NCBI RefSeq assembly: GCF_001652585.1
Contig: NZ_LWLG01000007.1
Location: 50,498 to 82,497, forward strand
Length of the DNA stretch: 32,000 nucleotides
Reading direction: 5' to 3'
DNA from: Thermosulfurimonas dismutans
GTDB lineage: Bacteria; Desulfobacterota; Thermodesulfobacteria; Thermodesulfobacteriales; Thermodesulfobacteriaceae
The translations under genes and the position numbers were made by a program. Under the pieces are notes generated by a model that worked only from the letters and a program-made list of their open reading frames with translations, was not told where the DNA came from and did not search any database. This document shows, in pieces, positions 5,048 to 32,000 of this stretch; the stretch's first letter is position 1; every line of letters starts with the position of its first letter.

Positions 5048-5056
5048 ATTAGGAGT

Positions 5057-5503: not shown

Positions 5504-5505
5504 GG

Positions 5506-6819: not shown

Positions 6820-6854
6820 GACTATCCTCCCCAGACTTTTATCCCTCCCTTACC

Positions 6855-6881: not shown

Positions 6882-7060
6882 TTATTCTTATTTTATTTTG
6901 CAACTGGGACGACTACGCCGATAACGGCTATTATTTCCTCTTCTCTGAGACCCGCTTTTTCAAATCCCAAAGGGTCTTTTTCTCCGGATGGCTCTCCGTG
7001 ACATTTGGCACACAAAAATTCAACTTTACAGGAGAGGCGTAAGCTTTTACTTTTAAAGCT

Positions 7061-11622: not shown

Positions 11623-12838
11623 GACCTTTCCTTTTAAGCGTTTCATTGTCTTTACAGGCTGGGCGGAAACCCTATCTAGGGCCGCGGAGATAGCTGAAGA
11701 ACTCAAACTCGCAGTTTATGTAGTAGGCGGACCGGTCAGGGATTTTTTTTTGGAAAAACCCGTCAAGGACCTCGATCTCGTAGTAGAGGGTGAGGCTGAA
11801 GAATACGCTCGGGCCCTAAGCCGTGCCCTTTCTGGAGAAATCAAGGCTCGGTCTCCTTTCCTCACATATAAAATTGTTTTTCCCGGAGGAGAGTTGGATC
11901 TCGTAACCGCTCGCAAAGAGGTTTATCCCCGGCCGGCGGCCCTCCCAAAGGTCTCCCCGGGGAGCATCTCGGAGGACCTCTACCGTCGAGATTTCACCAT
12001 AAACGCTATGGCTGTGGGACTTTCAGGGCCTTTCAAGGAAAAGCTCCTTGATCCCTTCGGAGGCCTCTTTGACCTCGAGAGCGGCCTTATACGGGTTCTT
12101 CATATGAATTCCTTTGTGGACGATCCTACTCGTATTTTTCGGGCCGCCCGTTATGCCGTGCGTTTCGAGTTCGATCTGGCTAAGGAAACTATAGGAGCCC
12201 TAGGAAGGGCCTGGACTCAGGATGCCTTAAATCTCCTTACCTCAGCTCGTATCCGTGGAGAACTCCTGCGCGTGCTCTCTGAGAGAGCTCCCGAAAGGGT
12301 TATTTTGTGTCTCGAGAGTCTAGGGGTACTCCAGGCTTTGGGTCTTCCTGAACCCCCCGCTTTCCTAGAAAAAAGCTTAAAAATCATGAATGAGAAGACC
12401 TCGGCCAAAGTCCTTCTGAAAGGTCTCATCCTAAGTTTAACTCGGGCTGAAGCGGCTCTTTCCCAAAAACTAGGACTTTCAGAAAAAGAAGCCCTGGAGT
12501 TTCAAGGCGAGTGGCTAAAATTGCAAGAACTTTTACCCAACATATTGGCCGCTACCAAACCTAGCCAAAGATTTAGGCTTCTTTCGGGTTTTTCTCTCCC
12601 TGTCCTCATAGCCACTGCAAGTGTTGAAAAGGACTTTGGAGAACGATTAAAGGAATTTTTGGCCTTAAAAGAAGTGAAACCTCATCTCACCGGAGAAGAC
12701 CTCAAAGTTCTGGGCATCCCTCCCGGCCCTCAGATGAGGAAAATCCTACAAAATCTCCTTTATGCCCGTCTTGACGGAAAGGTTAGTAGCCGGGAAGAGG
12801 AACTAGCCTTGGTTGGCCGCCTATTGAAAAAATGTTAG
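11597..12838 (+). CDS. cca: CCA-adding enzyme / poly(A) polymerase family nucleotidyltransferase
   Basis: Head-domain motif VVGGPVRDFFL...DLDLVV and RDFTINAM. The track ORF starts at 11534 inside xerD. The ATG at 11597 (MKNITLE...) is the more plausible start. Confidence 0.75.
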   Translation: MKNITLEAKTFPFKRFIVFTGWAETLSRAAEIAEELKLAVYVVGGPVRDFFLEKPVKDLDLVVEGEAEEYARALSRALSGEIKARSPFLTYKIVFPGGELDLVTARKEVYPRPAALPKVSPGSISEDLYRRDFTINAMAVGLSGPFKEKLLDPFGGLFDLESGLIRVLHMNSFVDDPTRIFRAARYAVRFEFDLAKETIGALGRAWTQDALNLLTSARIRGELLRVLSERAPERVILCLESLGVLQALGLPEPPAFLEKSLKIMNEKTSAKVLLKGLILSLTRAEAALSQKLGLSEKEALEFQGEWLKLQELLPNILAATKPSQRFRLLSGFSLPVLIATASVEKDFGERLKEFLALKEVKPHLTGEDLKVLGIPPGPQMRKILQNLLYARLDGKVSSREEELALVGRLLKKC

Positions 12839-13497
12839 ATTTCGGATTTATGATCTTATCCCGTATCGGCGAATTTCTAATTATTCTCCCGGCCTTACTG
12901 GCAGCCATCGTGTTCCATGAGCTGGCTCACGGCTGGGTGGCCTGGCGCTTAGGAGATCCTACGGCCAAGGCCGCCGGACGCCTCAGCCTGAACCCCTTGA
13001 AACACATGGATCCTATAGGCACTTTGGTCCTGTTTCTGACTCAGGCCATAGGTTGGGCTAAACCCGTACCGGTAAATCCGACTTACTTTCGAAACCCCAG
13101 GCAGGATATGATGTTGGTAGGCCTGGCCGGTCCGGTAGCCAATTTCATTCTGGCTTTCGGCATGGCTTTCCTCTACCGAATCCTGCCGCATTTCCTCTCT
13201 GGTATGTATCCCCTTCTTGGTCCTCTCACCCTAGATTTTGGGAAGATTGTTTCAACCATGCTTTATATAGGAGTTCAAATCAACATAGGTTTAGCCCTAT
13301 TCAACCTTCTTCCGATACCGCCTCTGGATGGGAGTCGTATTCTGGCTGGAATACTTCCTTCTCGTCTGGCCTATATCTACCTTCGCTATGAATATTTGGG
13401 TTTTATATTTCTGGTTGCTCTCGTCTTTACAGGCCTGGTCGGAAAAATTATACTCCCGGTGATTATAACTCTTACGAGGTTGTTTCTCGGAGGTTAG
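12832..13497 (+). CDS. Site-2 protease family (M50) membrane metalloprotease
   Basis: 221 aa, multi-TM. Contains the HELAHG zinc motif and the NLLPIPPLDG motif. Confidence 0.75.
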   Translation: MLDFGFMILSRIGEFLIILPALLAAIVFHELAHGWVAWRLGDPTAKAAGRLSLNPLKHMDPIGTLVLFLTQAIGWAKPVPVNPTYFRNPRQDMMLVGLAGPVANFILAFGMAFLYRILPHFLSGMYPLLGPLTLDFGKIVSTMLYIGVQINIGLALFNLLPIPPLDGSRILAGILPSRLAYIYLRYEYLGFIFLVALVFTGLVGKIILPVIITLTRLFLGG

Positions 13498-13499
13498 CG

Positions 13500-14504
13500 G
13501 TGGCCAAAAAAAGAGTGTTGAGCGGGATGCGTCCGACGGGACCTCTTCATTTGGGTCATCTTCATGGGGTTTTACAAAACTGGCTTCAGCTTCAGAAGGA
13601 ATACGAGTGCTTTTACTTTGTAGCTGATTGGCATGCTCTGACTACGGAATACGAAAATCCTCGGCGCATTCCGAAAAATACCCGGGAACTGCTCCTAGAA
13701 TGGCTTTCCGTAGGTCTTTCTCCGGAAAAAGCCACTCTTTTTGTACAGTCGGCCATCAAGGAACACGCGGAGCTCTACCTCCTCTTTGGAATGATCGTTC
13801 CGGTGCCCTGGCTTGAGCGCAATCCCACCTACAAGGAAATGCTTCAAAACTTGAAAAACAAGGACCTAACCACCTATGGTTTTCTGGGTTATCCGGTACT
13901 TCAGGCCGCGGATATTCTGATCTACAAAGCCGAAAAAGTGCCCGTAGGCGTGGATCAACTGCCGCATCTCGAACTCACTCGAGAGATCGCTCGCCGTTTC
14001 AACTACCTCTACGAGCGGGAGGTCTTCCCTCTACCGGAACCCATTCTCTCCCAAGAAGCCGCCAAGGTGCCAGGACTTGACGGTCGCAAGATGAGCAAGA
14101 GCTATGGTAACGCCATCTTTTTGAACGATTCCGAAGCAGAGGTCCAAAAGAAGATCCTTTACATGGTTACTGATACCGAAAGGCCTAGGAAGAGCGATCC
14201 AGGAGATCCGGAAAACCGCTGTGTAGCCTTTAACCTTATTAAGCTTTACACTCCGCAGGAAAGGATTCAGGAAATCATCGAAGACTGTAAAGCCGCCCGT
14301 CTGGGTTGCAAGGACTGTAAAAGAGAACTCGCCGAACGGGTGGTGGAGGCCTTAAGACCCATTTGGGATAAACGTGTTGAACTGGAGAAGCAAAAAGATC
14401 TTTTCGAAGAAATCGTTTCCGAAGGCAATCGCCGAGCCCGGGAAGTAGCCCAAACCACCCTAGAGGAGGCCAAAGAGATCCTTTGGGGAATCTCTTATTT
14501 TTAG
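13500..14504 (+). CDS. trpS: Tryptophan--tRNA ligase
   Basis: 334 aa with a GTG start. Class I signatures PTGPLHLGHLHG and KMSKS. Confidence 0.95.
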   Translation: MAKKRVLSGMRPTGPLHLGHLHGVLQNWLQLQKEYECFYFVADWHALTTEYENPRRIPKNTRELLLEWLSVGLSPEKATLFVQSAIKEHAELYLLFGMIVPVPWLERNPTYKEMLQNLKNKDLTTYGFLGYPVLQAADILIYKAEKVPVGVDQLPHLELTREIARRFNYLYEREVFPLPEPILSQEAAKVPGLDGRKMSKSYGNAIFLNDSEAEVQKKILYMVTDTERPRKSDPGDPENRCVAFNLIKLYTPQERIQEIIEDCKAARLGCKDCKRELAERVVEALRPIWDKRVELEKQKDLFEEIVSEGNRRAREVAQTTLEEAKEILWGISYF

Positions 14505-15196
14505 GCTACAATCGGAATTTCGCGTAAAAACCGAATTGTTCTCCCGTCATAGCCTAGGACTAAGGCCTTGACAAGGAGACCTTTTGACAAGGCCGCTTTC
14601 AAAGCCCTGCTAAAAGCCGGTTGGATATCTTCGGCGGGTACAACTTTTCGAGCCTCCTTTCTGAAAACCAGAAAAAGCAAGCCGGCCCTGTGGCCACTTT
14701 CGAGAAGGCTTCTCAGCGTCTTGAGGTGCTTCAAGCCCCTTTCCGTAGGGGCATCCGGAAAGAGGGCCGTTTCCTCATGGGCCCAGGTAACCCCCTTGAC
14801 TTCAAGATAAAGGTCGCCAGAGGAGGTCTTTAATAGAAAATCCAAGCGGCCCTCCCCTACTCCGGGCTCGGGATAAATTTCATAAAAGTCGCCAAAAGGT
14901 TTTAGTTTAAAAAGAAGGTTGGCCGTAATCTTTCGGTGATAACCCGAATGACAGAAACACCAGTAATCCCGAATACGAAAGGCCAAAAGATCCCAGCGGG
15001 TCTTCCTTCTAGGATTTTTGGCACGGGCCAGGAGGACCTCCCGTCCCGGAATGGCCAGATCTGGAAGTCTTCCGGGATCATGAAGATGAACTTCCTCCCG
15101 GATCCCTGGCCCCAATTCCACTACGGATAAAAATCGGTTAGGTCTTGAGATAAAAAGGCCTTTGGTATTCGCTGGAATTTCGAAGATCTCGCTCAA
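14501..15196 (-). CDS. sfsA: Sugar fermentation stimulation protein homologue
   Basis: 231 aa. The N-terminus GLFISRPNRFLSVVEL... and overall layout are typical of SfsA. Confidence 0.8.
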   Translation of the reverse strand: MSEIFEIPANTKGLFISRPNRFLSVVELGPGIREEVHLHDPGRLPDLAIPGREVLLARAKNPRRKTRWDLLAFRIRDYWCFCHSGYHRKITANLLFKLKPFGDFYEIYPEPGVGEGRLDFLLKTSSGDLYLEVKGVTWAHEETALFPDAPTERGLKHLKTLRSLLESGHRAGLLFLVFRKEARKVVPAEDIQPAFSRALKAALSKGLLVKALVLGYDGRTIRFLREIPIVA

Positions 15197-16206
15197 TTCA
15201 TCCTCTGAAAGAATTTTCCCGGAAGACTCTGGACGAGTCCCTTGAGTTCAAGGAGTAAAAGCAACTCCGAAAGCTCAGTAACCGGGAGCCCGGTTTCCGC
15301 TATCAGCTCATCAAAATGTTTGGGATTAACGGAAAGGACCCCAAGGAGCTTCTCTTCTGAAGGGGATAGCCCTACGACATTATCGTTTTTTTCTTCGTTA
15401 ATTTCCCTAATTACACCTAAAACTTCAATAACATCTTTAGGAGAAGTAACCGGATAAGCACCCTCTCGGATAAGATAGTGTGTACCCTGGCTGGCTTCTG
15501 AGAACACGCTTCCTGGAACAGCCATTACTTCCCGACCTTGGTCAGCAGCCAATCTGGCGGTGATGAGGGAGCCACTCCTCTGGGCGGCCTCCACCACCAG
15601 TACACCTTTACTCATCCCGCTTATGATACGATTTCGCCGGGGAAAACGCCAACGCTCAGGTCTTGAACCGAAAGGAAACTCCGAAATCAAGGCCCCTCCC
15701 CGAGCCACGATTTTTTCCGCAAGCTTTCGGTTTTCATAAGGATAAATCCAATCCAGTCCGGAACCGAGAACCGCCACCGTATAGCCTTCGGCCGAAAGCG
15801 CTCCCCTATGGGCTTCAGTGTCTATCCCTAAGGCCAGCCCTGAAACGATCCCTAGACCGAGAGAGGCCAGCTCCTTGGCCCATTCAAAGGCCACCTTGCG
15901 CCCGTAAGGAGTGGGCTTGCGGGTTCCTACCATTGCAAGGTAGCAAGCCTCGGATTCCAATCTACCCTTAACATAAAGAAAGGCAGGGGGATCTTTTATT
16001 TCCTTGAGAATAGAAGGATACTCAGGGTCTTCGAAAAAAACTATTTTGGCACCTAATTTTGCGGCCTTCTGCCATTCTTCCCGTCCGCGAAGGACGGCTT
16101 CACCTTCAGAAACATTTGGTTCCTGGACTGCCAACTTGGCCATCGAGAGACTCTTACCAGTGAGGATCACAAAGCCGAGGAGAAAGAGCTTTTCTTCAGG
16201 AGACAT
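15193..16206 (-). CDS. dprA: DNA processing protein DprA
   Basis: 337 aa. Rossmann core IVSGLALGIDTEAHRGAL, plus a C-terminal winged-helix-like tail. Confidence 0.85.
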   Translation of the reverse strand: MSPEEKLFLLGFVILTGKSLSMAKLAVQEPNVSEGEAVLRGREEWQKAAKLGAKIVFFEDPEYPSILKEIKDPPAFLYVKGRLESEACYLAMVGTRKPTPYGRKVAFEWAKELASLGLGIVSGLALGIDTEAHRGALSAEGYTVAVLGSGLDWIYPYENRKLAEKIVARGGALISEFPFGSRPERWRFPRRNRIISGMSKGVLVVEAAQRSGSLITARLAADQGREVMAVPGSVFSEASQGTHYLIREGAYPVTSPKDVIEVLGVIREINEEKNDNVVGLSPSEEKLLGVLSVNPKHFDELIAETGLPVTELSELLLLLELKGLVQSLPGKFFQRMN

Positions 16207-16828
16207 CCGTTTTGAAAAGGACGCTTATCTCTCCGGAGCGGACCTTGACTTCGGCTTCCGGTGAAAGGGTTTCAGCCGCAACCTTAAGATATGGATTTTC
16301 CGGAGATATCACTTCTGGAAAAACCTTTACTTTCAATAAAACACCTTCAGGAATATGTTCACCTGAGAGGCTAAGCTTTACCCCTTTTTCCACCAGATCG
16401 AAGACCAGCGCAAAAAAGAGGGCACAAAGTCCAGCCCGCAAACGATTGGCTGGTATTTTGACTCTGAAGGGGCCCTTCTCAAAGTGAAAACTTTTCTCTA
16501 CTTTATGTTTGAAGGTGAGTTCGGCTTCCCAGAAAGTTACCTCTCTTTCTATCATTTCCTTCAAATCCCAAGGGCCTTCAGATTCGTTTCCTAGTTCCGA
16601 TTCCGCGGCCGAAAGAAGATCCACCAGGCGATAAACTTGTTTTTTCATGCGCACCAAATAATTCTCGAAAAGAGTTCGCACTTCTTCAGGCAAGTTTGCA
16701 AGCTTGAGATTGGTTTCAAGAAGTTCTATTTGCATGAGAATGGCCTGAACCGGTCCTCTAAGATTGTGTAAATAACCTTTAAAAAGGAGACCTAACGCGG
16801 TATTCCTTAACAAAAGAGATATGTCCAT
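16196..16828 (-). CDS. Hypothetical protein with histidine-kinase-like H-box (degenerate kinase?)
   Basis: 210 aa. GYLHNLRGPVQAILMQIELLE resembles a HisKA H-box (h-HELR-PL). No N, G1 or G2 ATP-lid motifs were recognised downstream. Confidence 0.45.
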   Translation of the reverse strand: MDISLLLRNTALGLLFKGYLHNLRGPVQAILMQIELLETNLKLANLPEEVRTLFENYLVRMKKQVYRLVDLLSAAESELGNESEGPWDLKEMIEREVTFWEAELTFKHKVEKSFHFEKGPFRVKIPANRLRAGLCALFFALVFDLVEKGVKLSLSGEHIPEGVLLKVKVFPEVISPENPYLKVAAETLSPEAEVKVRSGEISVLFKTDVS

Positions 16829-16882
16829 TAAAAATTTCCTAGCATAGTCCGATATTAAAAGTCAAGTGGTGGAAAGTTCTAT

Positions 16883-17347
16883 TTAGATTTTGTCCAGACA
16901 AAACTCTACTACTAGGGGGTGACCTTCGAGCTCAAAAAGCAGAACCAAATGAGGGGACTTGCAAAGGGGGTGAATATGATGATCCTTCCCAGTAACAAGA
17001 GAGGGCGTGGAAGCCTTGAGGCTTACCCCCTGTTTTTCGAAGCGCCTCCTAAAGGCCCCGCAGATCATGTTGGCCATTTCTCCAGCCGCATCCACCACTT
17101 CATGATTGAGCTCCTGAGGCGCGCTTCCGAAAAGAGCGGACACGATTCTGAAAAGGACCTCCTTGGAAAAAGAAACTATGAAGACCCCTTTTACCTTCTC
17201 GCCTGTAAGACCGGCAACCGCCGAAACCTCTCCGAAAGAGACCTCATTATCTCTAAGAAATTGTTTCTTGAAGACTGGCTCCGCCCCAGTATAAGTTACG
17301 ATAACTTCTCTTACTGATTCCTTTAAGGCCTCAACTAAAGGATTCAT
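16883..17347 (-). CDS. cheX: CheX-like chemotaxis phosphatase family protein
   Basis: 154 aa. VDAAGEMANMICGAF and the overall size are typical of CheX/CheC-like proteins. Confidence 0.7.
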   Translation of the reverse strand: MNPLVEALKESVREVIVTYTGAEPVFKKQFLRDNEVSFGEVSAVAGLTGEKVKGVFIVSFSKEVLFRIVSALFGSAPQELNHEVVDAAGEMANMICGAFRRRFEKQGVSLKASTPSLVTGKDHHIHPLCKSPHLVLLFELEGHPLVVEFCLDKI

Positions 17348-17717
17348 TCTTCTTTAAATACTCCTTCATCTCCTCCCAAGAAATTCCCTCTTCGAACCCA
17401 GGACAAGTGCTCTTTATAATCTCAAAACTCTCAACATCTTTCAAGATACTAGGATGAAGAGGCCATTCGCGACAGCGATCAGGCTTTACCGGATGGACTC
17501 GGCAGAGACCTTCTTTTTCGTCATAAAAAATACAGTGTCCATTTATAGTTTTCATTTCGATACGTTTGTCCTTCCTTACTGCATACCTTTTCAAAAAGTC
17601 ATCCTTTGAAAGCCCTAGATAAACAGCCATGCGCTCAATTTCTTCCGGCAAGAGCGAAACCGTGCTTTCTCCCTGACAGCAAAAACCGCAACGTTTACAT
17701 TCAAAGACTTTCTTCAT
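17331..17717 (-). CDS. YkgJ-family cysteine-cluster (zinc/iron-chelating) protein
   Basis: 128 aa with the family signature CKRCGFCCQ (CxxCxxCC). Confidence 0.7.
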   Translation of the reverse strand: MKKVFECKRCGFCCQGESTVSLLPEEIERMAVYLGLSKDDFLKRYAVRKDKRIEMKTINGHCIFYDEKEGLCRVHPVKPDRCREWPLHPSILKDVESFEIIKSTCPGFEEGISWEEMKEYLKKNESFS

Positions 17718-18377
17718 AGGGGATGGGGTCCTCTAATCCAGCTTCGGAAAAGGCCTTGAGCCTCAACCTACAGGACTCACAACGTCCGCAAGCCACCTTT
17801 TCGTTCTGGTAACAGGACCAAGTGAGATGAAACGGGGCTCCTAACTGGACCCCCAGTCTAACGATTTCGGGCTTAGTTAGGTTTATAAGCGGGGTCTCTA
17901 TTCTGATATGGGTTTCAGGACGGGTCCCCTCCTCGATGGTCCGCTCAAAGGCATCGAAAAAACTTCGGCGACAGTCTGGGTAGCCTGAAAAGTCTACTTG
18001 ATTGGCCCCTATAAAGATTTTTTCGGCTCCGATAACCTCAGCCCAAGAGACGGCCACACAGAGAAAATGGGCATTTCTGAAGGGCACATAAGTTATAGGA
18101 ATACGTTCAGGATCGGGCTCCTCTTCCGGGACCGAAAGTTTGGTATCTGTAAGGGCCGACCCTCCGATGGCTTTAAGGGCCGGCACCTCGGTCACCAGAC
18201 GAAACTTCGGCCTAAAGTGTTCACACAAGTCAAAGAAGGCCTTTTCCTCCCGGGACTCAGTACGTTGGCCGTATTTTACATGTAGAAAGGCCACGTCGTG
18301 CTCTTGGGCGGCCACCGCAGCCGTTACACAAGAATCAAGACCGCCCGAAACGAGAACCACCGCCAGAGGTCTCTTCA

Positions 18378-18378
<1 letters not shown>
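17701..18378 (-). CDS. queC: 7-cyano-7-deazaguanine synthase
   Basis: 225 aa. PP-loop VVLVSGGLDS and C-terminal Zn cluster CGRCESCRLR. Confidence 0.9.
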
Positions 18379-19643
<1,265 letters not shown>

Positions 19644-20807
19644 CTATTTTTCGAAACCTGCAAGCTCTTTGATCTTTTCTACCATATCCAGACGTTCCCA
19701 GGTGAAATCCGGATCCGGACGTCCAAAGTGCCCGTAACAGGCAGTTTTCCGGAAGATCGGCCGACGCATATTGAGATATTCAATCATTTCTCGCGGACGA
19801 AAATCGAATAGTTCTTTTATGATTTCAACGATCCTTTCTATCGGTATGGTATTAGTACCATAAGTCTGTACATTTATGGCCAGAGGCTCTGGGACCCCAA
19901 TAGCATAAGCCACCTGCACCTCAAGTTCCCGGGCCACACCGGCGGCCACCATATTCTTGGCCACGTAGCGCGCATAATAAGAAGGAGTGCGGTCCACCTT
20001 GGTAGGATCTTTACCTGAGAAAGCTCCTCCTCCGTGATGTCCCCGACCGCCATAGGTATCTACAATGATCTTACGGCCTGTCATACCGCAGTCCGCAAGG
20101 GGACCTCCGATCACAAAGCGTCCGGTAGTATTCACCAAAAACTTGGTTTCGGAAGTAAGATGTTCCGGTGCCACCACCTTTTTGATAACCTCCTCTACGA
20201 TGGCCTCCTTGAGCTCTTTGTATTCAACCCAAGGTTCATGCTGGGCCGCAACCACCACCGTGTGGACTGCTACCGGCCTCCGATCTTCGTATTGAATCGT
20301 GACTTGAGTCTTCCCATCAGGTCGCAGAAAAGGAAGGATGCCCTTCTTCCTCACTTCGGCCAAACGCATGGCCAAACGATGAGCATACCAGATAGGCATA
20401 GGCATATAATCGGGGGTCTCATCGCAGGCGTAGCCGAACATAAGGCCTTGGTCTCCGGCCCCGATTTCCTCGCCCCGGTCAACCCCCATGGCAATGTCCG
20501 GACTCTGACGATCGATACTGGTTAGAACTGCACAAGTCTGCCAGTCAAAACCGAGATCCGAGTGATTGTAACCGATCTCTTTGACTACCCCGCGGGCAAT
20601 GGTGGCGTAGTCCACCCGGGCCTCGGTGGTAATCTCTCCGGCGATAAGGATCATACCGGTATTGACCAAGGTCTCACAGGCCACCCTGGCATAAGGGTCC
20701 TTTTCCAAGATAGCATCCAAGATAGCGTCTGAAATTTGATCCGCAACTTTATCGGGATGACCTTCCGTAACCGATTCAGAGGTAAAAAGAAAATTGGAGA
20801 GCCCCAT
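19644..20807 (-). CDS. metK: S-adenosylmethionine synthetase
   Basis: 387 aa. Motifs [23 protein letters not shown] and [20 protein letters not shown]. Confidence 0.97.
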
Positions 20808-20887
20808 TCCTTGACCTCCTTTTAGATCTCAGGGTTTACCTAAACCGGATTTAGGAAGATTTGTCAAGCAAATAAACAAATAAAAAA

Positions 20888-20913
20888 TGGCGTCCCCGGC
20901 GGGATTCGAACCC
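20888..20913 (-). other. Orphan tRNA 3'-end fragment (tRNA-Glu-like) with encoded CCA; possible att-site remnant
   Basis: The minus strand reads GGGTTCGAATCCCGCCGGGGACGCCA. This covers the T-loop TTCGAAT, the 3' T-stem, the 7-nt acceptor 3' strand, discriminator G and CCA, followed by TTTTTT. No matching 5' acceptor strand (GTCCCCG), D arm or anticodon arm lies upstream. Confidence 0.6.
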
Positions 20914-21071
20914 TAAAATATCCTATATTTCGTACAGATTTTGCAAGAAAGTCAAAGAAATGTCAAGTCCGCATGGAAAAATTCCCGAGAAAAAGATATA
21001 AATAATTCTTGACCTTAATGAAAGATCCGGTGTAGACCATACAAAAGTGGTCGAAAAACACGGGGGCCCTG

Positions 21072-22496
21072 ATGAAGAAAGAACCTCCCAAAACTAAGAT
21101 TATCGGCACCATCGGGCCGGCCTCAGCCTCCCGAAAGGTCCTCCAGCAGATGATCCAGGCGGGGATGAGTATTGCCCGCCTCAATCTCGCTCACGGAACC
21201 CCCGAACTTCACGAACAATACATCGCCCTGGTGCGGGCTGCGGCCCGGACGGCAGGACGAAAGGTGGCCATCATGGCCGATCTTCCCGGCCCCAAGATCC
21301 GGGTAGGTGTCCTTCCAGAGGAACCCCTGGAACTCAAAAAGGGAGCCCGGATCTTCCTAGTTCCTCACGAGCGCACTAACGATCCCCGGACCATCCCCAT
21401 ACCCCTACCCGGTCTTCTGGAGATCCTGCGCCCTAAACATTCCGTCTATCTCAACGACGGTCTCATCCAGCTCATGGTGGAGGAGGTCCTGCGGGATAAG
21501 GCCCGGGCCAGGGTGGTCGTGGGAGGGGAACTCTTTTCGCACAAGGGGGTAAACTTCCCGGGAATAGATCTGGGGCTTTCCGCCTTCACCGAGGAGGATC
21601 AGCGCCTCATGTCTTTTGCCCTGGCCCACGGGGTTGAGGCCATAAGTCTTTCCTTTGTGGAAGGCCCGGAAGAAATACGCAAAGCCCGGGAATACGCCCG
21701 CTCTCTTGGATATTCTCCGTTTATCATCGCCAAGATCGAACGCGCCCAGGCAGTGAAAAACTTTTCCGCCATCCTGGAAGAGGCCGACGGGATCATGATC
21801 GCCCGCGGAGATCTGGGAGTCGAGATTCCCATCGAGGAGATAGCCGTGGTTCAAAAGTCCCTCATAGAAAAGGCTGCTCTTGCCGGAAAGGTGGTCATCA
21901 CCGCCACGCAGATGCTTAAGTCCATGACGCACAATCGGCGCCCCACCCGGGCCGAGGTCACGGACGTGGCCAATGCCATCCTGGATGGAACGGACTGTCT
22001 CATGCTTTCCGAAGAAACCGCCGCCGGGCTCTATCCCGTGGAAGCGGTAAAGATGATGGCCAAAATCGCCATAGTGACCGAGAAGGAAAGGAAATACTTC
22101 CCGGTTCGCGAAAACCTCCTGGCCTCTTTTCACAAGGGAAAGATCAGCCTGGATGATGTCCTTTCGCTGGATGTTTTTACCACCGTGGAGCATCTGAAGG
22201 TCAAGGCGATAATCATTCCCACCGATACCGGGGCTACGGCCAGGAAGGTGGCCCGCTTTCGTCTACCGGTCTGGATCTACGCCTTTAGCCCCCACGAATC
22301 CACCTGTGAGCGTTTGCTCTTTTATTACGGAGTGAGACCGGCCCTTCTTACCGAAAGTCTCAGCGATTGGCAGGGGTTTGCTCTCCACTGGTTACGAAAG
22401 AACATCCTCAAAGAAGGACTCGTCGTCTCCCTGCAACGCACCTTCCTCGGCTCCCACAAGACTTACCGCCTGGAACTAATCGAAGTGGAAAATTGA
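21072..22496 (+). CDS. pyk: Pyruvate kinase
   Basis: 474 aa. The N-terminus reads KTKIIGTIGPAS...MSIARLNLAHG. Also contains MIARGDLGVEIP and the MLSEETAAG-type motif. Confidence 0.95.
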   Translation: MKKEPPKTKIIGTIGPASASRKVLQQMIQAGMSIARLNLAHGTPELHEQYIALVRAAARTAGRKVAIMADLPGPKIRVGVLPEEPLELKKGARIFLVPHERTNDPRTIPIPLPGLLEILRPKHSVYLNDGLIQLMVEEVLRDKARARVVVGGELFSHKGVNFPGIDLGLSAFTEEDQRLMSFALAHGVEAISLSFVEGPEEIRKAREYARSLGYSPFIIAKIERAQAVKNFSAILEEADGIMIARGDLGVEIPIEEIAVVQKSLIEKAALAGKVVITATQMLKSMTHNRRPTRAEVTDVANAILDGTDCLMLSEETAAGLYPVEAVKMMAKIAIVTEKERKYFPVRENLLASFHKGKISLDDVLSLDVFTTVEHLKVKAIIIPTDTGATARKVARFRLPVWIYAFSPHESTCERLLFYYGVRPALLTESLSDWQGFALHWLRKNILKEGLVVSLQRTFLGSHKTYRLELIEVEN

Positions 22497-22530: not shown

Positions 22531-22821
22531 TCAAAAAATCATATGATCTCCTTCGGGAAGACGGGTATGTTTACCATACCCCAGATGGATTACTGGGTGC
22601 CGACAGGTCTCGCAGAGACGGTAATAACGTACTTTATCCTCCAGAGCATCAATGATCCCTTCCACCGCTTGGCGCATGACCACAAACTCTTCGGGCGTTA
22701 AACGGCATTCAAAAACGCTGTAGAGGACCCGAATCCCGAAGTCCTCCATTACGCGGGCTACTTTTCTCAGCCTTTTCTCGTCGGCAATGTCGTAGCAGAC
22801 CAGGTAATAGTTTCCGCTCAC
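22531..22821 (-). CDS. cas2: CRISPR-associated endoribonuclease Cas2
   Basis: 96 aa with a GTG start overlapping the upstream stop (GTGA). Contains YLVCYDI (beta1 with catalytic Asp), SVFEC and DKVRYYRL. Confidence 0.9.
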
Positions 22822-23776
22822 AGGATCAATTCCTCCTCGGGTTCCTCTGCGAAATATACCGGGCCGGAGAATTCAAGATTCTTGAGACACTTCCGGCAGA
22901 GGCGGTAGATCCGCACCCGATCCTCCGTGCGCTTGATGAAATCCGCAAGCCAGGAAATAACCTCCTCCAGTTCCTTCTGCGTGAGCCAGCACTCGAACAC
23001 GCTCTTCTGAACCGGTTTTCCATAGTCCTTCAGGAATTTGTGAACCCTCTGTACCGGACGCCATTCCTCCATGAGATCCAGCACCAGGGAAGGTTTTCCG
23101 TAATCCGGGGCGTGCAGGAAACCCAGATAGGGGTCGAGCCCTGCGGTTTCCACCAGGCTCCAGATCCGGGAAAGGAGCAGGGTGTAACCTAGGGAAAGCA
23201 GGGGTTTACAGGATCCCTAGGTGGGCGGCGGGTACGTTCCCGGAATTCAAAACCGGAGCGTTTTGAAAGTATTCCCAGCCCTTCGAAATAATGCCGGGAG
23301 GCCATGCCCTCGAGACCCAAGATCTCGTCAATATCTTTGGCCTTTTCAAGTTCGGTAAGAACGCGTTTAAGGTGAAATATCGGACCTTCCAGGGCCGTTT
23401 CCCCTAGCCTTCGTTTCTGACGGGCCAGGTATTCCCGCTGATTGTGAATTTTTCCGTGTACGAAAGCCCTGGCCAGTTCGAGCCGTTTCCACAGGTTATG
23501 GAAGCTCTGAAACTGGCTTAACCGCAGTTCTATGTTCTTCCCGAGCGGAGGCGAAAGTTTGTCGAGATATTTTCCGGAAAGGGTGAGGAAGTGAACCTCT
23601 ATTCCGCGTTTGAGCAAGGCCTGGAGGGCCGGGGCAGTAAAGTTTACCCTCCCGAAGACCACCACCTGATCCACTTCCGCTAGCCTGACCTCCTTTTTCT
23701 TCTGACCGATTTCCAGCTTGAGCCTTTCTCCTTCCCGCGAGACCTTTAACCCCTGTTCGGTGAGATAAAGGATCAT
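22818..23776 (-). pseudogene. cas1: cas1, frameshifted, with its C-terminal ~80 aa replaced in frame by a Cas2-like segment (cas1-cas2' chimera)
   Basis: The N-terminal 195 codons (MILYLTEQGLKV...LGLEGMASRHYF...RRPPRDPVN) end at a stop at 23189-23191. The canonical continuation [30 protein letters not shown]...LDLMEEWRP lies in another frame, consistent with one base missing near G4 23201-23204. From about 23054 the sequence turns Cas2-like ([22 protein letters not shown]...DRVRIYRLC). Confidence 0.8.
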
Positions 23777-23800: not shown

Positions 23801-24145
23801 GTCGCAATCCCTTCTTAGTGAGGGAAAGTTTTCTCATACATCGAGGATATGAAAGTCGCTCAGCAATTCGCTCGTATGTCGCAATCCCTTCTTAGAGAGG
23901 GAAAGTTTTCTCACTTGCCCTTGAATTTCTAGATGTTTCCACGGCTCTAGGGTCGCAATCCCTTCTTAGTGAGGGAAAGTTTTCTCACTCTTACCGCTTT
24001 GATGTCAAAACCGTTTAGGAGGTGAAACCAGTCGCAATCCCTTCTTAGTGAGGGAAGGTTTTCTCACACTCCTATAGCTGAAGGTAAGCCTGGCTATGTT
24101 CTTACTGAGTCGCAATCCCTTCTTAGTGAGGGAAAGTTTTCTCAC
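23801..24145 (-). CRISPR. CRISPR array of 5 x 37-nt repeats and 4 spacers (40, 37, 42, 41 nt), transcribed on the minus strand
   Basis: Repeats are at 23801-23837, 23878-23914, 23952-23988, 24031-24067 and 24109-24145. The plus-strand consensus is GTCGCAATCCCTTCTTAGTGAGGGAAAGTTTTCTCAC. The reverse complement, GTGAGAAAACTTTCCCTCACTAAGAAGGGATTGCGAC, ends in ATTGCGAC, an 8-nt Cas6-type 5' handle preceded by a TCCCT/AGGGA stem. Variant bases occur at 23837, 23896 and 24057. Confidence 0.95.
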
Positions 24146-24218
24146 TGCATATTTTATAACTTAAGAATCTACAGTATCTTTTAAAGCCGTAAATGATAAG
24201 GATTGAAAATGAATGTTT
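24146..24218 (-). promoter_or_regulatory. Putative CRISPR leader (AT-rich) between the terminator and the first repeat
   Basis: A 73-nt AT-rich segment abuts the consensus repeat on the side predicted by the handle orientation. Candidate TTTACG-16 nt-TAGATT promoter elements are present on the minus strand but are weak matches. Confidence 0.5.
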
Positions 24219-24258
24219 AAAAAAGTGGCTCCCCCGATATCTTCGCTGGGGGAGCCAC
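24219..24258 (-). terminator. Rho-independent terminator insulating the upstream cas/accessory operon from the CRISPR leader
   Basis: Perfect 11-bp GC-rich stem: GTGGCTCCCCC (24225-24235) pairs with GGGGGAGCCAC (24248-24258). The loop is 12 nt, and on the minus strand the hairpin is followed by T6 (24224-24219). Confidence 0.8.
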
Positions 24259-24445
24259 AACATAACAGCCCATAAAATCGTCCAAAATAGATACTGGCAA
24301 TCCTTTACTTAAAAGCACCCTAAAAATGACGATATCAAGCAGGCTTATGAATCCCTCACCAAAAAGGGCACCCTTATCGCCAGTTTTTCAAAGAGCTGAA
24401 TCCTCTTATCCTTTAAAATCAAAAATTTTCGGAAGTGTAAAGGGG

Positions 24446-26026
24446 CTATGCGGATCGAGGGCGAACGATAATTTCCTCGCCCTCTAAGGAGAAAATATAA
24501 TCTCCGACCCGAAGTCTTTGGGGATTTCTTCGGAAATGTCTCCGAAGCTCGTGTTCCACATACCGGAGCCTCTCGCGCAGGTGAAGGTAAACCCGTCCCA
24601 ATTCTGCAGGACGACTATAGTGAAGGGTGAGACGGTCCTCTAAAGTAGGCACCAGTTCGGGATCTATGTGAAGCAGGGGTGAGGGATAGCGTCCCTTCAA
24701 AGCCTCTCCGAAAACGCATCCGCAGGGACGATCCAGAACAAAATCCCGAAACCACATCTCAAGCTTGGCGCAACTTATGGGATTCCTGGGTATTCCCTCG
24801 AGCATTCTTTCTATTCTGTGATAGCTATAATCCGGCGTGCCGGAAAGGATGTGGTGCAACAGCTCACGGCCATTCCTTAGAAAACCCACCGAGAGCATTA
24901 CGACCAGTTTTTCCTCCCGAGAAAGATGTTTTCCGGCCTCGGCTCGCCGGAAAACAAAGTCCAGTACCGGACACGCCCGGCGAAGCTTTAATAATTCAGG
25001 AGGATCTTTCCGGGAGACAGATACCGGCATGGATTTTCGGCAAAAACTTTTTAAGGTTTCAAAAGGTAGTTCAAAGCCCTTCTCCCGCCAACCTACACCC
25101 TCGCCCCTGGTTCCAATTTCGTAGGAATGAAATATTCCTTCACTGGGAAAGGGGAGTCTTTCTTTCAGCGTCTCAAAAAATCGCCTGACCCAGAGGAAAT
25201 AAATCGGCTCGGAGAAAAAGAACCACAACCGGTAGCGAAACGGGCTAACCCGTTCCAGCGCACCCTCAAGCCCCCACCCCCAGGCACCACACCGAAAGGG
25301 CCTCCCGCTTCACAGCTTCAGCCTTAATGGCCAGTAAGCCTCGATTGCGCCGGTTTCGGTCAAGCTCTCGCTCCGGAAGGGCTATAACGAAATAAGCCCC
25401 GTGAAGTTTGTTTTCTTCAGTAAGAGGGAAGTAGATGAGATAGGTCCGCCCCAGAAGGTGCTGTGAAAGTTTTTCCAGAGAAGGGGCTCCCTCTTTGATT
25501 ACCAGAGCCGTCTTTCCGTAAGAGGTAAGATGTAACTCGGCATGAAGGGGTCTTCCACGAAAAAGTCTTCTAAGGGGCTCAGTTCCCGAGGACCGAGATT
25601 TGGAGGATAATAGCGCAACGGAGTCTCGGTAGAAACGCTCTCAAGAGGGCCGGCCACCACGGCGGCCGCTCCGGGACGGCCGAGTTCCAAGAACACCCGG
25701 GCCAGCTTTTGCCGCACGGTTTGCGAATCGGCCAGGCGCAGAACCCGCTGAAATAGCGTGGCCGCCCGACGAAGTTCCCCAAGTTCGTAGGCCACTTCGG
25801 CCCGGGCCAGGAGATAGCGGGACTGATCGGGATCGCGCGAGATGGCAAGATCGTAACACTCCGCCGCCTGGGGCTTTAACCCCAAGGTTTCACAGAGAGC
25901 ACCCCACCGGAAGTACTCCTCGGCGGTCTGCCCGGGACGGAGACGGTGACGGAGGATCAAATCGCGGGCCTTGCCGTCTTGACCTTCGGAAAGGAATTTT
26001 TTGGCCTGATCAAGAAATTTGTTCAC
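24446..26026 (-). pseudogene. TPR-repeat N-terminus fused to a degenerate archaeo-eukaryotic primase (PrimPol/CAPP-like) domain; split into 3 frames by two homopolymer indels
   Basis: Piece A is 26026-25499, with TPR-like repeats. Piece B is open 25640-25269 and has no ATG, GTG or TTG (LFRGRPLHA...HLLGRTYLIYFPL...AYFVIALPE...). Piece C is open from 25309, with the track ORF at 25228-24446 (ALERVSPFRYRLWFFFSEPI...SYEIG...ELPF...Cys-containing C-terminal domain). The joins are restored by +1 T at 25560-25564 and -1 G at 25271-25281. The AEP assignment is from remembered motif order only. Confidence 0.5.
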
Positions 26027-27333: not shown

Positions 27334-28452
27334 TCACAAGTGTTTTTCCAGCTTCTTTATCTCAAAGCGTTTATGGCCATGACAAACGCCAAAAATGCGG
27401 CGAGCATCCCGATCGCTCCAGGCATAAATTTCGTGGGTGCAGTCGGAAACGGGTTTACCTTTCAAAGGGTGACAGTTGAGGGATCCGGGATTGTGATGCC
27501 CTTCTCGCTCCAGGTGTAGGGCCAGCTCATCCATCCGTTTGTTGATTTCATAACATCGATCAGGCGGCAAATCGTTTACATCTTTTGCAAATTCTTCAGA
27601 AAAAGTGATACGCTCCGAAGGCGGCTCCCAGAACCTCTCTTGGTAAATTTTCTGCTTGCACTGCTGCCAGATGAGCTCACCCCACGGGGAAAGCGTAATC
27701 TCTTCCCCCAGAAGCAATAAAAAAGAATCGGGGATTGGACGACAAACATCGGGCTTTACTGGAAGCCCCAGGGCCAGCCGCCGCCAAACCGTAAGGTTTT
27801 TCCTGATGGAAGGCAAAACATCCAAGACCAGGGGCAAACGCGGAATGCGTAAAAGCTCCTCGCTTGTTTCAAAAATATAGACCGCTTCATCCGCGTAAAA
27901 TTGGGAAAGCGTTTGCAAAATACCCTGAATGCTTTTGAATCCTCCGGTTAAATTAAAAATTATCCTAAAACCTTTATCCTTATAGCCGGGGAGACTCTCA
28001 TGTAAACGGCGGACAAGCTCGCTTACCGCACAGTGAAAGTTATCAAGGCTGTCGGTGCGAAGACCGGCAATGTCATCCCAAACCTGGACGTTTGTAACTC
28101 CCTGATACCGCAACCAGGTCTCCACCATACGGGCCGTTTCCCTTCCGAGCCAGGTATCCGTGGCAATAAGAATATGTATGTCCTTTGATCCTGAGGAAAT
28201 ATTTCTCTGATAAATCCTGAATATTCCGTTTATTTCGGCGGAAATTCCGGATGCTTCCTCCGGGGAAAGTTGAAGCAAAAGTTCTCTCCGTTCCTTGAGG
28301 TGCTTTTTGAGTAATTCCCCTTCGGGACCAGAGATCGGCTCCGGGTTGTTTGCGTGTTTAAAAATCAAGGGACGCAATTTATTATCGACTCTATTGGTCA
28401 AGATACTGGTCCCACAGGGAGATAAGATGAGTTTTGTTCTTTTTTTACTCAT
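27334..28452 (-). CDS. CARF domain fused to a RelE/ParE-like mRNA interferase domain (Cami1-like type III ancillary effector)
   Basis: 372 aa. CARF signatures are LILSPCGTSILTN and IFNLTGGFKS (APE2256-like). The C-terminal ~90 aa, FAKDVNDLPPD...INKRMDELA...LNCHPLKGKPVSDCTHEIYAWSDRDARRIFGVCHGHKRFEIKKLEKH, follows the RelE/ParE toxin pattern. Confidence 0.65.
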   Translation of the reverse strand: MSKKRTKLILSPCGTSILTNRVDNKLRPLIFKHANNPEPISGPEGELLKKHLKERRELLLQLSPEEASGISAEINGIFRIYQRNISSGSKDIHILIATDTWLGRETARMVETWLRYQGVTNVQVWDDIAGLRTDSLDNFHCAVSELVRRLHESLPGYKDKGFRIIFNLTGGFKSIQGILQTLSQFYADEAVYIFETSEELLRIPRLPLVLDVLPSIRKNLTVWRRLALGLPVKPDVCRPIPDSFLLLLGEEITLSPWGELIWQQCKQKIYQERFWEPPSERITFSEEFAKDVNDLPPDRCYEINKRMDELALHLEREGHHNPGSLNCHPLKGKPVSDCTHEIYAWSDRDARRIFGVCHGHKRFEIKKLEKHL

Positions 28453-28888
28453 AGAGGGACACTTTTAGCGTAAATTTTTGAACAAAAGGGTTCCTCTTTA
28501 GTTCTTCCCGGGTGTAACCAAAAAGATCACAGGGAAGCCCCACTTCGGCAAAATAGTCAAGGTAAGGGCGTTCGGGAAACGGTCCTTCGGCCCTGTTAAG
28601 CACCAACAAGATAACTGCATCGCTTCCGGGGATGGCCCTGCCTTCGGCAAGGGAGCCGAAAAGGCGTACCTCTTCCACCTCTTCGTGATCTCCAAGGAGC
28701 CTGCGTGCGGCCTCCCTGAGTCTGCGCAGGACTTCTTCACAATGGAGCCAAAATATCTTTACAGAACCGTATGATTTCTCCTGCACCACGGACGGCTTCA
28801 CGGGCGTCCTACCTTTCATTTCCCAAGCGGCGTTTTCGAGATCTTTTTCGGCTTGTCTTAACCAATCAGCGCTTCTTTCAGGCATCAC
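28445..28888 (-). CDS. HEPN N-terminal fragment fused to a minimal nucleotidyltransferase (MNT) domain
   Basis: Residues ~6-45 (ADWLRQAEKDLENAAWEMKG...VVQEKSYGSVK) look like HEPN helices 1-2, and no R-x4-6-H motif follows. Residues ~60-147 contain LFGSLAEGRAIPGSDAVILLV, an MNT GS...SD motif that lacks the second Asp. The gene overlaps the CARF-RelE start by 8 nt. Confidence 0.6.
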   Translation of the reverse strand: MMPERSADWLRQAEKDLENAAWEMKGRTPVKPSVVQEKSYGSVKIFWLHCEEVLRRLREAARRLLGDHEEVEEVRLFGSLAEGRAIPGSDAVILLVLNRAEGPFPERPYLDYFAEVGLPCDLFGYTREELKRNPFVQKFTLKVSLYE

Positions 28889-30179: not shown

Positions 30180-31156
30180 AATGGAATGGTTAAAGCTAAT
30201 CCATAGCGATATATCTTATGAGACAAACTTCCTAAAGTTACATCTTCAGGGGTAATATCTACTATAGTTCCGTTAAAACTCTCTTTGAGAACCGAACCCT
30301 CCTTTAAAAAGCGTATTCCCTTTCGTTTTAGAGGAAGAGCTATACGGCCGGAGGTTATCCATCCTCTGGAAATGCCGATTTTGTAAGCTTCAAGCCCGTT
30401 TTCTAATCTCGGGATCTCTTCCCCGGAAGGGATAAGCCGAGAAATAAGCACCTTGCAAGGACTTGAGTGGCTTAGCAATTCTTCAAATTGTTTTTTAAGC
30501 TCTTCCTCCGGTTCTTCTACCTCAAAAACTCCGCAACCGTAGGTCCTTTCCCCTCCCAATCCGATTTCCCCTAAAAGGGCAAGACCTTTCATAAAAAGGT
30601 TTACGCCTTCCTGATTTCCAACCACCACTCCCCAAAGTCCCCCTTCTTTCGCATATTGGATATATCCTTCGTGAAAGAGATTGCTTTCCAGACCTTCTCT
30701 ATCCAGAGCTACACGGGGGCGAATAATTCTTTTATATGCCCGTTGATAACGTTCTTTCTGGATAGTGTAAGCAGTCTCAATTATTGAAGAAGAAACTTCT
30801 CCTTTTAACCATTCTTTATAAAGATTTAAAGGTACCCAGTCCGTCTTTTTGAAGATCTTGAAAATATTAGACCGTTCTTCCTTGGCAGGCACAGCGAAAT
30901 GAGGCTTAGGAAGAAAATAGCAGGTTTGATAATATATAAACAGGCTTGATATTCGAAACGGGGGACTTTTTAAAAATTTCTCGCATATTTCGGAAGCCTT
31001 TTCTATTCCCCAGAAAGCGCTTACCGCATTTAGCCAAGCCGAAAACAAAGTATCCGACCCTACCCACTCGGAAACACTTTCTAAATCTATTCCAGTCTCC
31101 CCGAAATGCGTAAATCCTTTAAATTTCAACTTGAAAATTTTATATTTCATAACCAA
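30176..31156 (-). CDS. csm4: Type III-A RAMP protein Csm4 (Cas5-like subunit)
   Basis: 326 aa. The N-terminus reads [15 protein letters not shown]...[13 protein letters not shown], and the Gly-rich motif is [14 protein letters not shown]. The ATG at 31150 is an alternative to the TTG at 31156. Either start overlaps the PIN gene stop. Confidence 0.8.
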
Positions 31157-31583
31157 CTTTTATCATCAATTCTTGAGTAGAGATTACATCCTCAAACCCT
31201 TTTTCCTTTAAACCTTTGAATAGTTTTTTATCTCCAGTCCATAGAAGCGCTTTAAGCTCTATAGCCAAAGCTACAAACGGAGTATCGCTTTCGTCTATCT
31301 CTTTACAGAGTTGCCAAGCTTTTTGATAAGCTTCTTTAGAAATATATCTTTCATTTACAAATTCGATCTCTTTTATGATTTGATGTACAAAATATTCTAA
31401 TTGCTCAGGTTCAAATTTAGTATGTTTTATAATCTTACTTTTAAGACTCAGCAACTCTGTAATAGCAGAATTGCAGGAGAAAAGATCAAAAATTTGTGAT
31501 GTTATTATTTGTCGTATGTGACCTGTTGCTGACAATAAAGCCGAAAATATTATATTGGTATCCACTACAATTTTAATCTTCAC
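31140..31583 (-). CDS. PIN-domain toxin (VapC-like, PIN_3-type)
   Basis: 147 aa with a GTG start. The acidic residue series is IVVDTNI, ITELL, DESDTPFVALA and WTGDKKL. Confidence 0.8.
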   Translation of the reverse strand: MKIKIVVDTNIIFSALLSATGHIRQIITSQIFDLFSCNSAITELLSLKSKIIKHTKFEPEQLEYFVHQIIKEIEFVNERYISKEAYQKAWQLCKEIDESDTPFVALAIELKALLWTGDKKLFKGLKEKGFEDVISTQELMIKVGYEI

Positions 31584-31812
31584 TTAATATGCCTTTCTCT
31601 ATTAAAATTTTCTTTCCTTCTTTTTCCCACCATGCTCTTTTAGCCTGATCAGCTAAATCATTTATCTCTTTTTCTGATAATTTTATTTGTGTTGCTATTT
31701 CTTCCATTTCTAAACGCTTTAACAACTGTCTGATTACCTCCTTGGGAACAGTTTTGGGTATTTCTATAATAAAACTCTCTGCATTTTCTTTAAATTTAAT
31801 ATTTAAAGACAT
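31573..31812 (-). CDS. Putative antitoxin cognate to the PIN toxin
   Basis: The 79-aa ORF overlaps the PIN start by 11 nt, the classic antitoxin-toxin arrangement. Its SD (GGAGG) is formed by the last codons of csm3. No family was recognised. Confidence 0.5.
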   Translation of the reverse strand: MSLNIKFKENAESFIIEIPKTVPKEVIRQLLKRLEMEEIATQIKLSEKEINDLADQAKRAWWEKEGKKILIEKGILSED

Positions 31813-31813
31813 T

Positions 31814-32000
31814 TTAACCTCCAGAATTTTTAAATTTTTGATGAATATTTTCTATAATTCTACCAAACTCTTTCAGTTCAACTTTTTCATGGTTTTCTAT
31901 TTGAAGTTCCTTAACTTCACCGTTTTCAAATTTTTTTCCGGTAATTTTTATATCGTGGATTTTTACCTGGCCGTAACCCCTAGAGCCGTGTCCCCCCAGA
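31814..32000 (-). CDS. csm3: Type III-A RAMP protein Csm3, C-terminal 61 codons (5' part beyond window)
   Basis: My own translation of the minus strand from 31999 gives LGGHGSRGYGQVKIHDIKITGKKFENGEVKEL...KFKNSGG, with a stop at 31816-31814. GG-GSRGYG is the conserved C-terminal Csm3 motif. The ORF is absent from the track because it has no start in the window. Confidence 0.7.
   Translation of the reverse strand, partial: LGGHGSRGYGQVKIHDIKITGKKFENGEVKELQIENHEKVELKEFGRIIENIHQKFKNSGG

Follow-up and report, generated by a model that had tools for sequence, protein, structure and literature searches.

The adaptation (spacer-acquisition) genes of a type III-A CRISPR-Cas locus in Thermosulfurimonas dismutans are best read as a module in early pseudogenisation. 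The locus lies in a 32,000-nucleotide (nt) stretch of contig NZ_LWLG01000007.1 (positions 50,498 to 82,497), referred to here in its entirety as the window. Within it small frameshifts and deletions have recently broken three genes: that for CAPP (a TPR-type CRISPR-associated primase-polymerase), cas1, and cas2A, the first of its two cas2 genes. What is left of cas1 and cas2A resembles a Cas1-Cas2 fusion; we regard it as the outcome of ordinary gene decay that mimics a fusion protein, with no new kind of fusion involved, and put the probability of this reading, as that of pseudogenisation of the module, at about 0.88. The ancestral module was ordered CAPP, CRISPR array, cas1, cas2A and cas2B. 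In the window, cas1 has lost a single base, which shifts the frame past residue 191; a 360-nt deletion, presumably formed by illegitimate recombination at a 2-nt microhomology, took away the end of cas1, the intergenic spacer and the start of cas2A; and the CAPP gene acquired two frameshifts and a 35-codon loss within its catalytic domain. The window has intact copies of the second cas2 gene (cas2B) and of the interference and signalling genes visible in it (csm4, csm5, csx1 and a CARF-domain gene), and its array is intact as well.

The ancestral arrangement is preserved in related loci, which were found by a search with the 127-amino acid (aa) fragment that spans the junction of cas1 and cas2A, and then on the contigs of its matches. 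This search returned intact 95-aa Cas2 proteins (P0001-P0003), 85-92% identical to the Cas2-like part of the window, and a Cas1 C-terminus (P0012), 97% identical to the Cas1 tail of the window, with the normal continuation ...EEWRPVIVDVIVMRTLNW...EYRAFTI. The relatives L001/L002, L004 and L085/L086 share 75-93% nucleotide identity with the window. Intact cas1 (337-338 aa), cas2A (95 aa) and cas2B (96 aa) are present in L001, L002, L085 and L086; in L004, with about 93% DNA identity to the window, both cas2 genes are intact and cas1 is cut by the contig end. The cas1-cas2-cas2 order that the initial annotation had expected in orthologous loci is therefore found in L001/L002 and L085/L086, and in L004 as far as its contig reaches. 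The layout with two cas2 genes adjoining cas1, the ancestral state, is found in L001, L002, L004, L005, L006, L085 and L086, and a tandem cas2A-cas2B follows cas1 in about 15 of the examined CAPP-associated type III loci (L001:286-1886, L004:1-1472, L005:4127-7122, L006:2791-5620, L085:2608-4324 and others). The orthology of cas2A and cas2B is clear in the Thermodesulfatator-like clade; Thermodesulfatator autotrophicus (L007) carries instead a B-like cas2 upstream of CAPP. The nearest named relatives in the genome-contig scan were an uncultured Thermodesulfatator metagenome-assembled genome (MAG), an Aquificota MAG and T. autotrophicus.

Alignment with these relatives at the level of single bases locates the deletion. 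In the relatives cas1 reads ...TGG-CGT-CCG-GTA/ATA-GTA-GAT... and cas2A reads ...CGT-TTA/CAG-AGG..., with the slash at the breakpoint, and the window reads ...TGG-CGT-CCG-GTA-CAG-AGG.... The length missing from the window is 360 nt when compared to L004 and L003, and 354 nt when compared to L001; in the BLAST comparison, L004 positions 592-949 have no counterpart in the window. With the deletion, cas1 lost about 100 C-terminal codons and its stop, cas2A lost codons 1-18, and the 12 nt that separated the two genes disappeared; cas1 codon 242 is now joined to cas2A codon 19. In the relatives the two genes are in the same frame, and the number of nucleotides lost is divisible by three; the remnants therefore form a continuous open reading frame (ORF), which gives them the look of a fusion. 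The switch into Cas2 sequence, which the initial annotation had placed at about 23054 directly after MEEWRP, proved exact: the junction codon is GTA at 23054-23052, and the same frame then runs on through Cas2 sequence to a stop at 22818-22820. The annotation had also proposed that an in-frame deletion fused cas1 to the first of two tandem cas2 genes, with which the base-level alignments agree, and had suggested mapping the endpoints with profile hidden Markov models, which gives Cas1 240/283 and Cas2 10/74. Once corrected for the frameshift described below, the product has 319 aa and matches Pfam Cas1 over positions 1-240 of 283 (E 5.6e-82) and Pfam Cas2 over positions 10-72 of 74 (E 4.1e-16), matches far beyond chance, and the NCBIfam profiles give the same domain picture. 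On solved structures, the Cas1 portion of the product reaches as far as residue 249 of chain 7cr6_A, which has 336 aa, and the Cas2 portion aligns from residue 20 of 8d3l_E and 4qr0_A onwards.

Two other origins of the 360-nt deletion were considered and rejected. An assembly collapse is not consistent with a junction homology of only 2 nt and no flanking repeat. Recombination at the DYGKP motif common to Cas1 (..PDYGKPSL..) and Cas2A (..KDYGKPVQ..) was rejected because the window junction lies elsewhere, the two copies of the motif being at 23088-23102 and 23018-23032. In an unrelated metagenomic chimera (P0162, a JGI contig, 292 aa) the junction falls exactly at the DYGKP motif, which suggests that this motif can mediate cas1::cas2 deletions.

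The part of cas1 that precedes the deletion is itself distributed over two frames. The N-terminal ORF ends at a stop codon at 23189-23191, directly after RRPPRDPVN in translation, as the initial annotation had it and with matching coordinates on the minus strand. Cas1 sequence continues one frame over, at −1 (or, equivalently, +2) relative to the cas1 frame, and this shifted-frame fragment is 97% identical to P0012, which comes from the full-length C-terminus of L003. In a tblastn search with L001 Cas1, residues 1-191 match in one frame of the window and residues 209-242 in another. The relatives read GTA-AAC/AAT-GCC-CTG (V-N-A-L) and the window reads GTAAAC-CCCTG, one G fewer. The run of four C (four G on the plus strand) at 23201-23204 exists because the G between Cs was lost; the relatives have no such homopolymer. 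Thus, of the earlier proposal of a frameshift by loss of one nucleotide at the G run, the frameshift and the single-base loss stand, supported by the extra G in L001-L004, while the loss of a homopolymer unit does not, the lost base being the G of AAC-GCC. Nor do the alignments give an order for the 1-nt and the 360-nt deletions, although the frameshift had been described as the later event. By descent, the remnant is the cas1 gene, 83-85% identical to L001 Cas1, with the motifs ILGLEG, LGFLH and LDLMEE present and conserved with the relatives; LEG, GFLH and DLMEE are taken here as the catalytic Glu/His/Asp(Glu) sites. It is not a complete Cas1 as described by PF01867/TIGR00287, with an N-terminal beta-sandwich and a C-terminal alpha-helical domain in one uninterrupted ORF: the profile match ends at 240 of 283 positions in Pfam and at 246 of 334 in TIGR04093.

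The two frames might still be joined by programmed −1 ribosomal frameshifting on A_AAC_CCC (23207-23201), which would bypass the frameshift and allow regulated expression of the chimera. In the cas1 frame, gtA-AAC-CCC conforms formally to X_XXY_YYZ, slippage by −1 gives exactly ...DPVNPLLSLGY..., and a hairpin of −34.8 kcal/mol (z −2.3) is predicted downstream. However, the heptamer occurs in no relative, all of which read AAC-GCC-CTG in frame, the hairpin begins within the heptamer instead of 5-9 nt past it, bacterial ribosomes slip poorly on CCC in the A site, and the product would still be devoid of essential parts of both domains. Since the relatives do not have it, the heptamer is best seen as a by-product of the 1-nt deletion and not as an evolved signal, and programmed frameshifting at this site is hardly credible.

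Another reading would make the chimera a working natural Cas1-Cas2 fusion that serves, alongside Cas2B, as a compact integrase subunit. Natural fusions of this kind exist, Thermoproteus tenax Cas1/2 among them, and those detected here (the P0128 cluster, P0130 and P0151) consist, as in the window, of Cas1 and then Cas2 in one reading frame. It is also true that the LEG, GFLH and DLMEE motifs of Cas1 are kept in the window and that the remnants show few nonsynonymous changes. However, P0128, P0130 and P0151 retain both domains whole, with Cas1 extending to position 265-278 of 283 and Cas2 starting from position 1-2, and P0128 (389 aa, in a cluster of 19 members) is conserved on at least 59 contigs, whereas the window sequence is without Cas1 positions 241-283 and beyond, without Cas2 positions 1-9, frameshifted and unique. 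Neither both domains complete in one ORF nor an architecture conserved in relatives was found for it. In terms of residues, about 87-100 from the Cas1 C-terminus are missing together with the central beta1 strand of Cas2; the chimera ORF is interrupted by the frameshift, the closest relatives (93% identity) carry separate, complete genes, and the partner gene, CAPP, is broken as well. The junction is unique to the window: in 84 related loci, Cas1 and Cas2 domains never occur together in one stop-to-stop frame, metagenome contigs scanned for the exact junction pattern gave no match, and among 1.84 billion representative proteins searched exhaustively with phmmer there is none with this junction. 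The same junction conserved in relatives, which the initial annotation had named as the observation that would point to a functional fusion, was found in none of those with 75-93% nucleotide identity. A functional fusion is therefore considered extremely improbable. Instead, the window chimera belongs with sporadic deletion products, independent events of the same trivial kind. Truncated chimeras of this sort from metagenomes (P0162, P0202, P0124 and P0167) each have a different junction and each form a single-sequence cluster. Like the window sequence, they join a C-terminally cut Cas1 to an N-terminally cut Cas2; they differ from it in the profile positions at which Cas1 ends (227, 253 or 234) and Cas2 starts (24, 10 or 5), and none is related to the window lineage. 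P0124 (a Logan contig, 260 aa) consists of a partial reverse-transcriptase (RT) domain (through YADD), a 70-residue Cas1 slice and a nearly complete Cas2, and looks like a heavily deleted RT-Cas1-Cas2 operon still in frame.

The two cas2 genes differ in their state of preservation. A complete ferredoxin-like fold with the beta1 YDI aspartate (PF09827/TIGR01573) is found in cas2B and not in cas2A. Identity of the cas2A remnant to P0001 and P0002, both intact, is 89-92%, and residues 1-18 of the 95-aa orthologues (MDRxFYIISYDIGDPRRL), with the beta1 strand and the YDI aspartate, are absent from it; orthologue and structure mapping agree in this with the earlier description of a headless upstream Cas2. 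The intact second cas2 gene reported downstream is there as described (22821-22531, 96 aa). It matches Pfam Cas2 over positions 2-71 of 74 (E 1.7e-22), is full length when compared to its orthologues, and is 95% identical to the orthologue in L004 and 79% to that in L001; mutual identity of Cas2A and Cas2B in the relatives is 36-37%. cas2B is intact in two independent cas1/cas2A wrecks, at 22531-22821 in the window and at L087:1383-1673. It might be suggested that cas2B is kept for an acquisition-independent role (e.g., as a nuclease or toxin-like type III partner), or that the remnant of Cas1 tail and Cas2A acts as a dominant-negative regulator that switches adaptation off. Candidates for the latter would be a 111-aa ORF that begins with the GTG at 23153 or, should the frameshift be erroneous or bypassed, the 319-aa product. 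The hints in this direction, an intact cas2B met twice and few nonsynonymous changes, are accounted for equally well by recent decay, and the cas2B counts (5 synonymous and 0 nonsynonymous substitutions in the window) are too low to tell selection from recency. We consider both roles very unlikely.

Decay reaches beyond the lesions described in the initial annotation to the upstream CAPP gene. The pieces located between the array and csx1 are by descent the CAPP gene (NF040561), and its lesions were placed against the proteins of T. autotrophicus (L007) and of the Thermodesulfatator MAG (L005). The 5' part aligns with L007 CAPP from residue 2 to about 165. The middle part corresponds to L007 residues 176-245, without gaps, at 39% identity (E 1e-13) and collinear with its flanks, and is bracketed by frameshifts at about 25497-25545 and about 25273-25287. 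In the 3' part, tblastn with the L007 and L005 proteins shows that the conserved block LPLG...PY..QL.F has lost about 35 aa, in frame, near 25058-25063. The pieces do not form the single ORF of TPR, AEP core and PriCT-like domain that defines the family, and even the stitched three-frame translation scores 179.4 bits against a cut-off of 200 bits. In a word-indexed protein search, the C-terminal ORF of CAPP found three proteins only. The published domain map of CAPP consists of TPR at 1-100, the AEP catalytic core at about 110-340 and a C-terminal domain at 360-546 (Zabrady et al., 2021; PMC8211822), and by this map all three lesions fall within the catalytic core. CAPP was described as operonic with Cas1-Cas2 (PMC8211822), and in most of 80 related loci a full-length CAPP gene of 564-600 aa stands directly upstream of cas1.

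It may also be asked whether the frameshifts are real. The cas1 1-nt frameshift, perhaps along with those in CAPP, could be a sequencing or consensus error, in which case the true gene would be an uninterrupted 319-aa Cas1(deltaC)-Cas2A(deltaN). The frameshifts are known from the assembled consensus and not from reads, there is no exact record of the window ORFs (111 aa, 195 aa, Cas2B and the CAPP C-terminal ORF) in the assembly collection, and the cas1 site is now a C4 run. However, the base lost is a G flanked by Cs in the relatives and not a homopolymer unit, and the breaks are not scattered over the window. All eleven housekeeping orthologues of L001 in the window (5057-14504) are full-length and in a single frame; in the adaptation genes, which also carry two large deletions, three frame breaks lie inside a stretch of about 2.3 kb, against none in these eleven genes over about 10 kb. 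That three frameshifts and two large deletions are confined to 3.5 kb of functionally linked genes argues for relaxed selection and not for a noisy assembly. Consensus error is thus an unlikely explanation, and under it the 360-nt deletion would still be real and the protein most likely non-functional.

The state of the remnants points to recent inactivation. Differences between the window and L004 were polarised with L001 as outgroup, which assigns to the window branch 8 synonymous and 5 nonsynonymous substitutions in cas1, 1 and 0 in the cas2A remnant, and 5 and 0 in cas2B, in total 14 synonymous and 5 nonsynonymous in the three genes since the split from L004. No further stops or indels are found in the cas1 and cas2A remnants. 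The window array has no spacers in common with L001 or with L003, one of its two closest relatives (the L004 array is off its contig), from which it follows that acquisition went on past these splits. With few substitutions, no further stops or indels and no common spacers, the inactivation is recent. The array repeat itself is common to the window, L001, L003 and L085. Single-base variants occur in the repeat copies at 23801, 23878 and 24031; the first of these copies differs at the base with which the transcribed repeat begins, and L001 differs there too. The three of five repeats that the initial annotation counted as mutated are therefore better read as two to three of five. From the ATTGCGAC 3' end of the repeat and the co-orientation of the cas genes, we infer that the array is transcribed from the minus strand. 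The segment 24149-24445 is the probable leader; about 50 nt adjoining the first repeat are conserved in L003 (window 24200-24107 corresponds to L003 4-97). The features of the module are listed in Table 1.

Table 1. Features of the adaptation module in the window, with the observations that define them.
Feature	Position in window	Strand	Description
cas1 N-terminal ORF	23776-23189	minus	195 aa; premature stop 4 codons past the frameshift
cas1 1-nt deletion site	23201-23205	minus	Alignments with L001, L002, L003 and L004: extra G in all four
cas1 shifted-frame fragment LLSLGY...MEEWRPV	23052-23200	minus	Cas1 residues ~193-242; holds the GFLH and DLMEE motifs
Deletion junction CCGGTA/CAGAGG	23051-23054	minus	DNA alignments with L001, L003 and L004; 2-nt TA microhomology
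cas2A remnant	22818-23051	minus	Codons 19-95 and stop; Pfam Cas2 10-72/74
cas2B	22821-22531	minus	Intact, 96 aa, GTG start; 4-nt overlap with the stop of the upstream ORF
CRISPR array	23801-24148	minus	5 repeats of ~37 nt, GTGAGAAAACTTTCCCTCACTAAGAAGGGATTGCGAC as transcribed; 4 spacers
Probable leader	24149-24445	minus	Between the CAPP gene and the array
CAPP 3' part	24446-25228	minus	End of AEP domain and PriCT-like C-terminal domain; NF040561 357-509/515
CAPP middle part	25287-25496	minus	N-terminal half of AEP domain, in a different frame
CAPP 5' part	25499-26026	minus	TPR-domain ORF, 175 aa, premature stop; Pfam TPR and NF040561 3-99/515

Several observations concern the surroundings of the module. 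Compared to L001, in which cas2B abuts ACT/AMP-binding genes, the window carries an inversion of about 17.5 kb (5057-22496) that runs from an ACT-domain gene up to the gene for pyruvate kinase. In L004, 46 nt beyond cas2B are common with the window, including the last four codons of the pyruvate kinase gene (pyk), and are followed by an island of AAA-ATPase, PD-(D/E)XK and XRE genes. The inversion and the divergence of L004 suggest that the 3' flank of cas2B is a rearrangement hotspot. On the other side of the locus, a PIN-domain toxin gene (PF10130, E 1.7e-30) lies at 31140-31583, directly upstream of csm4, and a small antitoxin-like ORF at about 31590-31830 precedes it; the toxin and its putative antitoxin appear to be inserted within the csm operon. 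Between csm5 and csx1, the region 27334-28888 encodes a CARF-domain protein (Cas_APE2256, 372 aa) and an MntA-like nucleotidyltransferase (147 aa), which may be accessories of cyclic-oligoadenylate signalling.

As far as can be judged from its genes, and as the initial annotation had supposed, the module would no longer be able to acquire new spacers, because Cas1 is without about a quarter of its alpha-helical catalytic domain, Cas2A is without beta1, and both Cas2 proteins are needed in the one such system that has been tested. The beta1 strand lost from Cas2A is the central strand of the ferredoxin-fold sheet, and the conserved Asp is lost with it. It is improbable that the intact cas2B makes up for these losses; in the RT-Cas1-Cas2A-Cas2B system of Vibrio vulnificus, deletion of either Cas2 abolished acquisition (Gonzalez-Delgado et al., 2019; PMC6821258). 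The four existing spacers are probably still usable by the locus, because the visible interference and signalling genes are full length: csm4, csm5, csx1 and the CARF-domain gene all give full-length family matches.

There are points that weigh against this reading. The loss of function is deduced from domain anatomy, and Cas1 and Cas2 could be provided in trans by another adaptation module outside the visible 32 kb. Consensus errors could in principle account for the three single-base frameshifts, though not for the two large deletions. The remnants are also nearly free of nonsynonymous change, as is expected if decay is recent, but this fits continued selection as well.

Two described systems are close to the ancestral module. 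In Marinitoga piezophila, the CAPP-Cas1-Cas2 module resembles the window in having a TPR, AEP and PriCT-like gene by the array, cas1 and cas2 in a type III setting (Zabrady et al., 2021; PMC8211822); it differs in that CAPP, cas1 and cas2A are disrupted in the window and that there are two cas2 paralogues instead of one. The type III-D system of V. vulnificus has two different cas2 genes in tandem after cas1, as in the relatives of the window, and each Cas2 is needed for acquisition there, which suggested a Cas2A/Cas2B heterodimer (Gonzalez-Delgado et al., 2019; PMC6821258). The partner in that system is an RT fused to Cas1, whereas here it is a primase-polymerase and cas2A is truncated in the window. 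The two-Cas2 layout has been published for RT-Cas1 systems (PMC6821258), and no description of it was found for CAPP systems. The CAPP-Cas1-Cas2A-Cas2B module of the relatives extends this layout from RT-Cas1 to primase-polymerase-associated systems.

Lesions of the adaptation genes are found in other members of the clade. The close relative L003 has its own 121-nt deletion in cas1, and its array is down to two degenerate repeats and one spacer. In L087, cas1 and the first 29 or so cas2A codons are gone, the remaining cas2A carries a frameshift, and cas2B is kept. L085 has a disrupted array. In L005, cas1 (4127-5154) is split into ORFs of 108 aa and 211 aa with residues ~100-130 missing or shifted, possibly another adaptation-module lesion or else a MAG assembly error, and a 446-aa gene stands between cas1 and cas2A-cas2B. 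Loss of the adaptation module is evidently recurrent in this clade. It is recurrent in type III systems generally.

The significance of these results beyond annotation is little. It is worth stressing that neither annotation nor sequence mining should take the apparent "Cas1-Cas2 fusion" ORF for a novel compact integrase. The independent lesions in the window, L003, L087 and L005 could, however, form a small natural series in which adaptation modules are lost and interference genes are kept.

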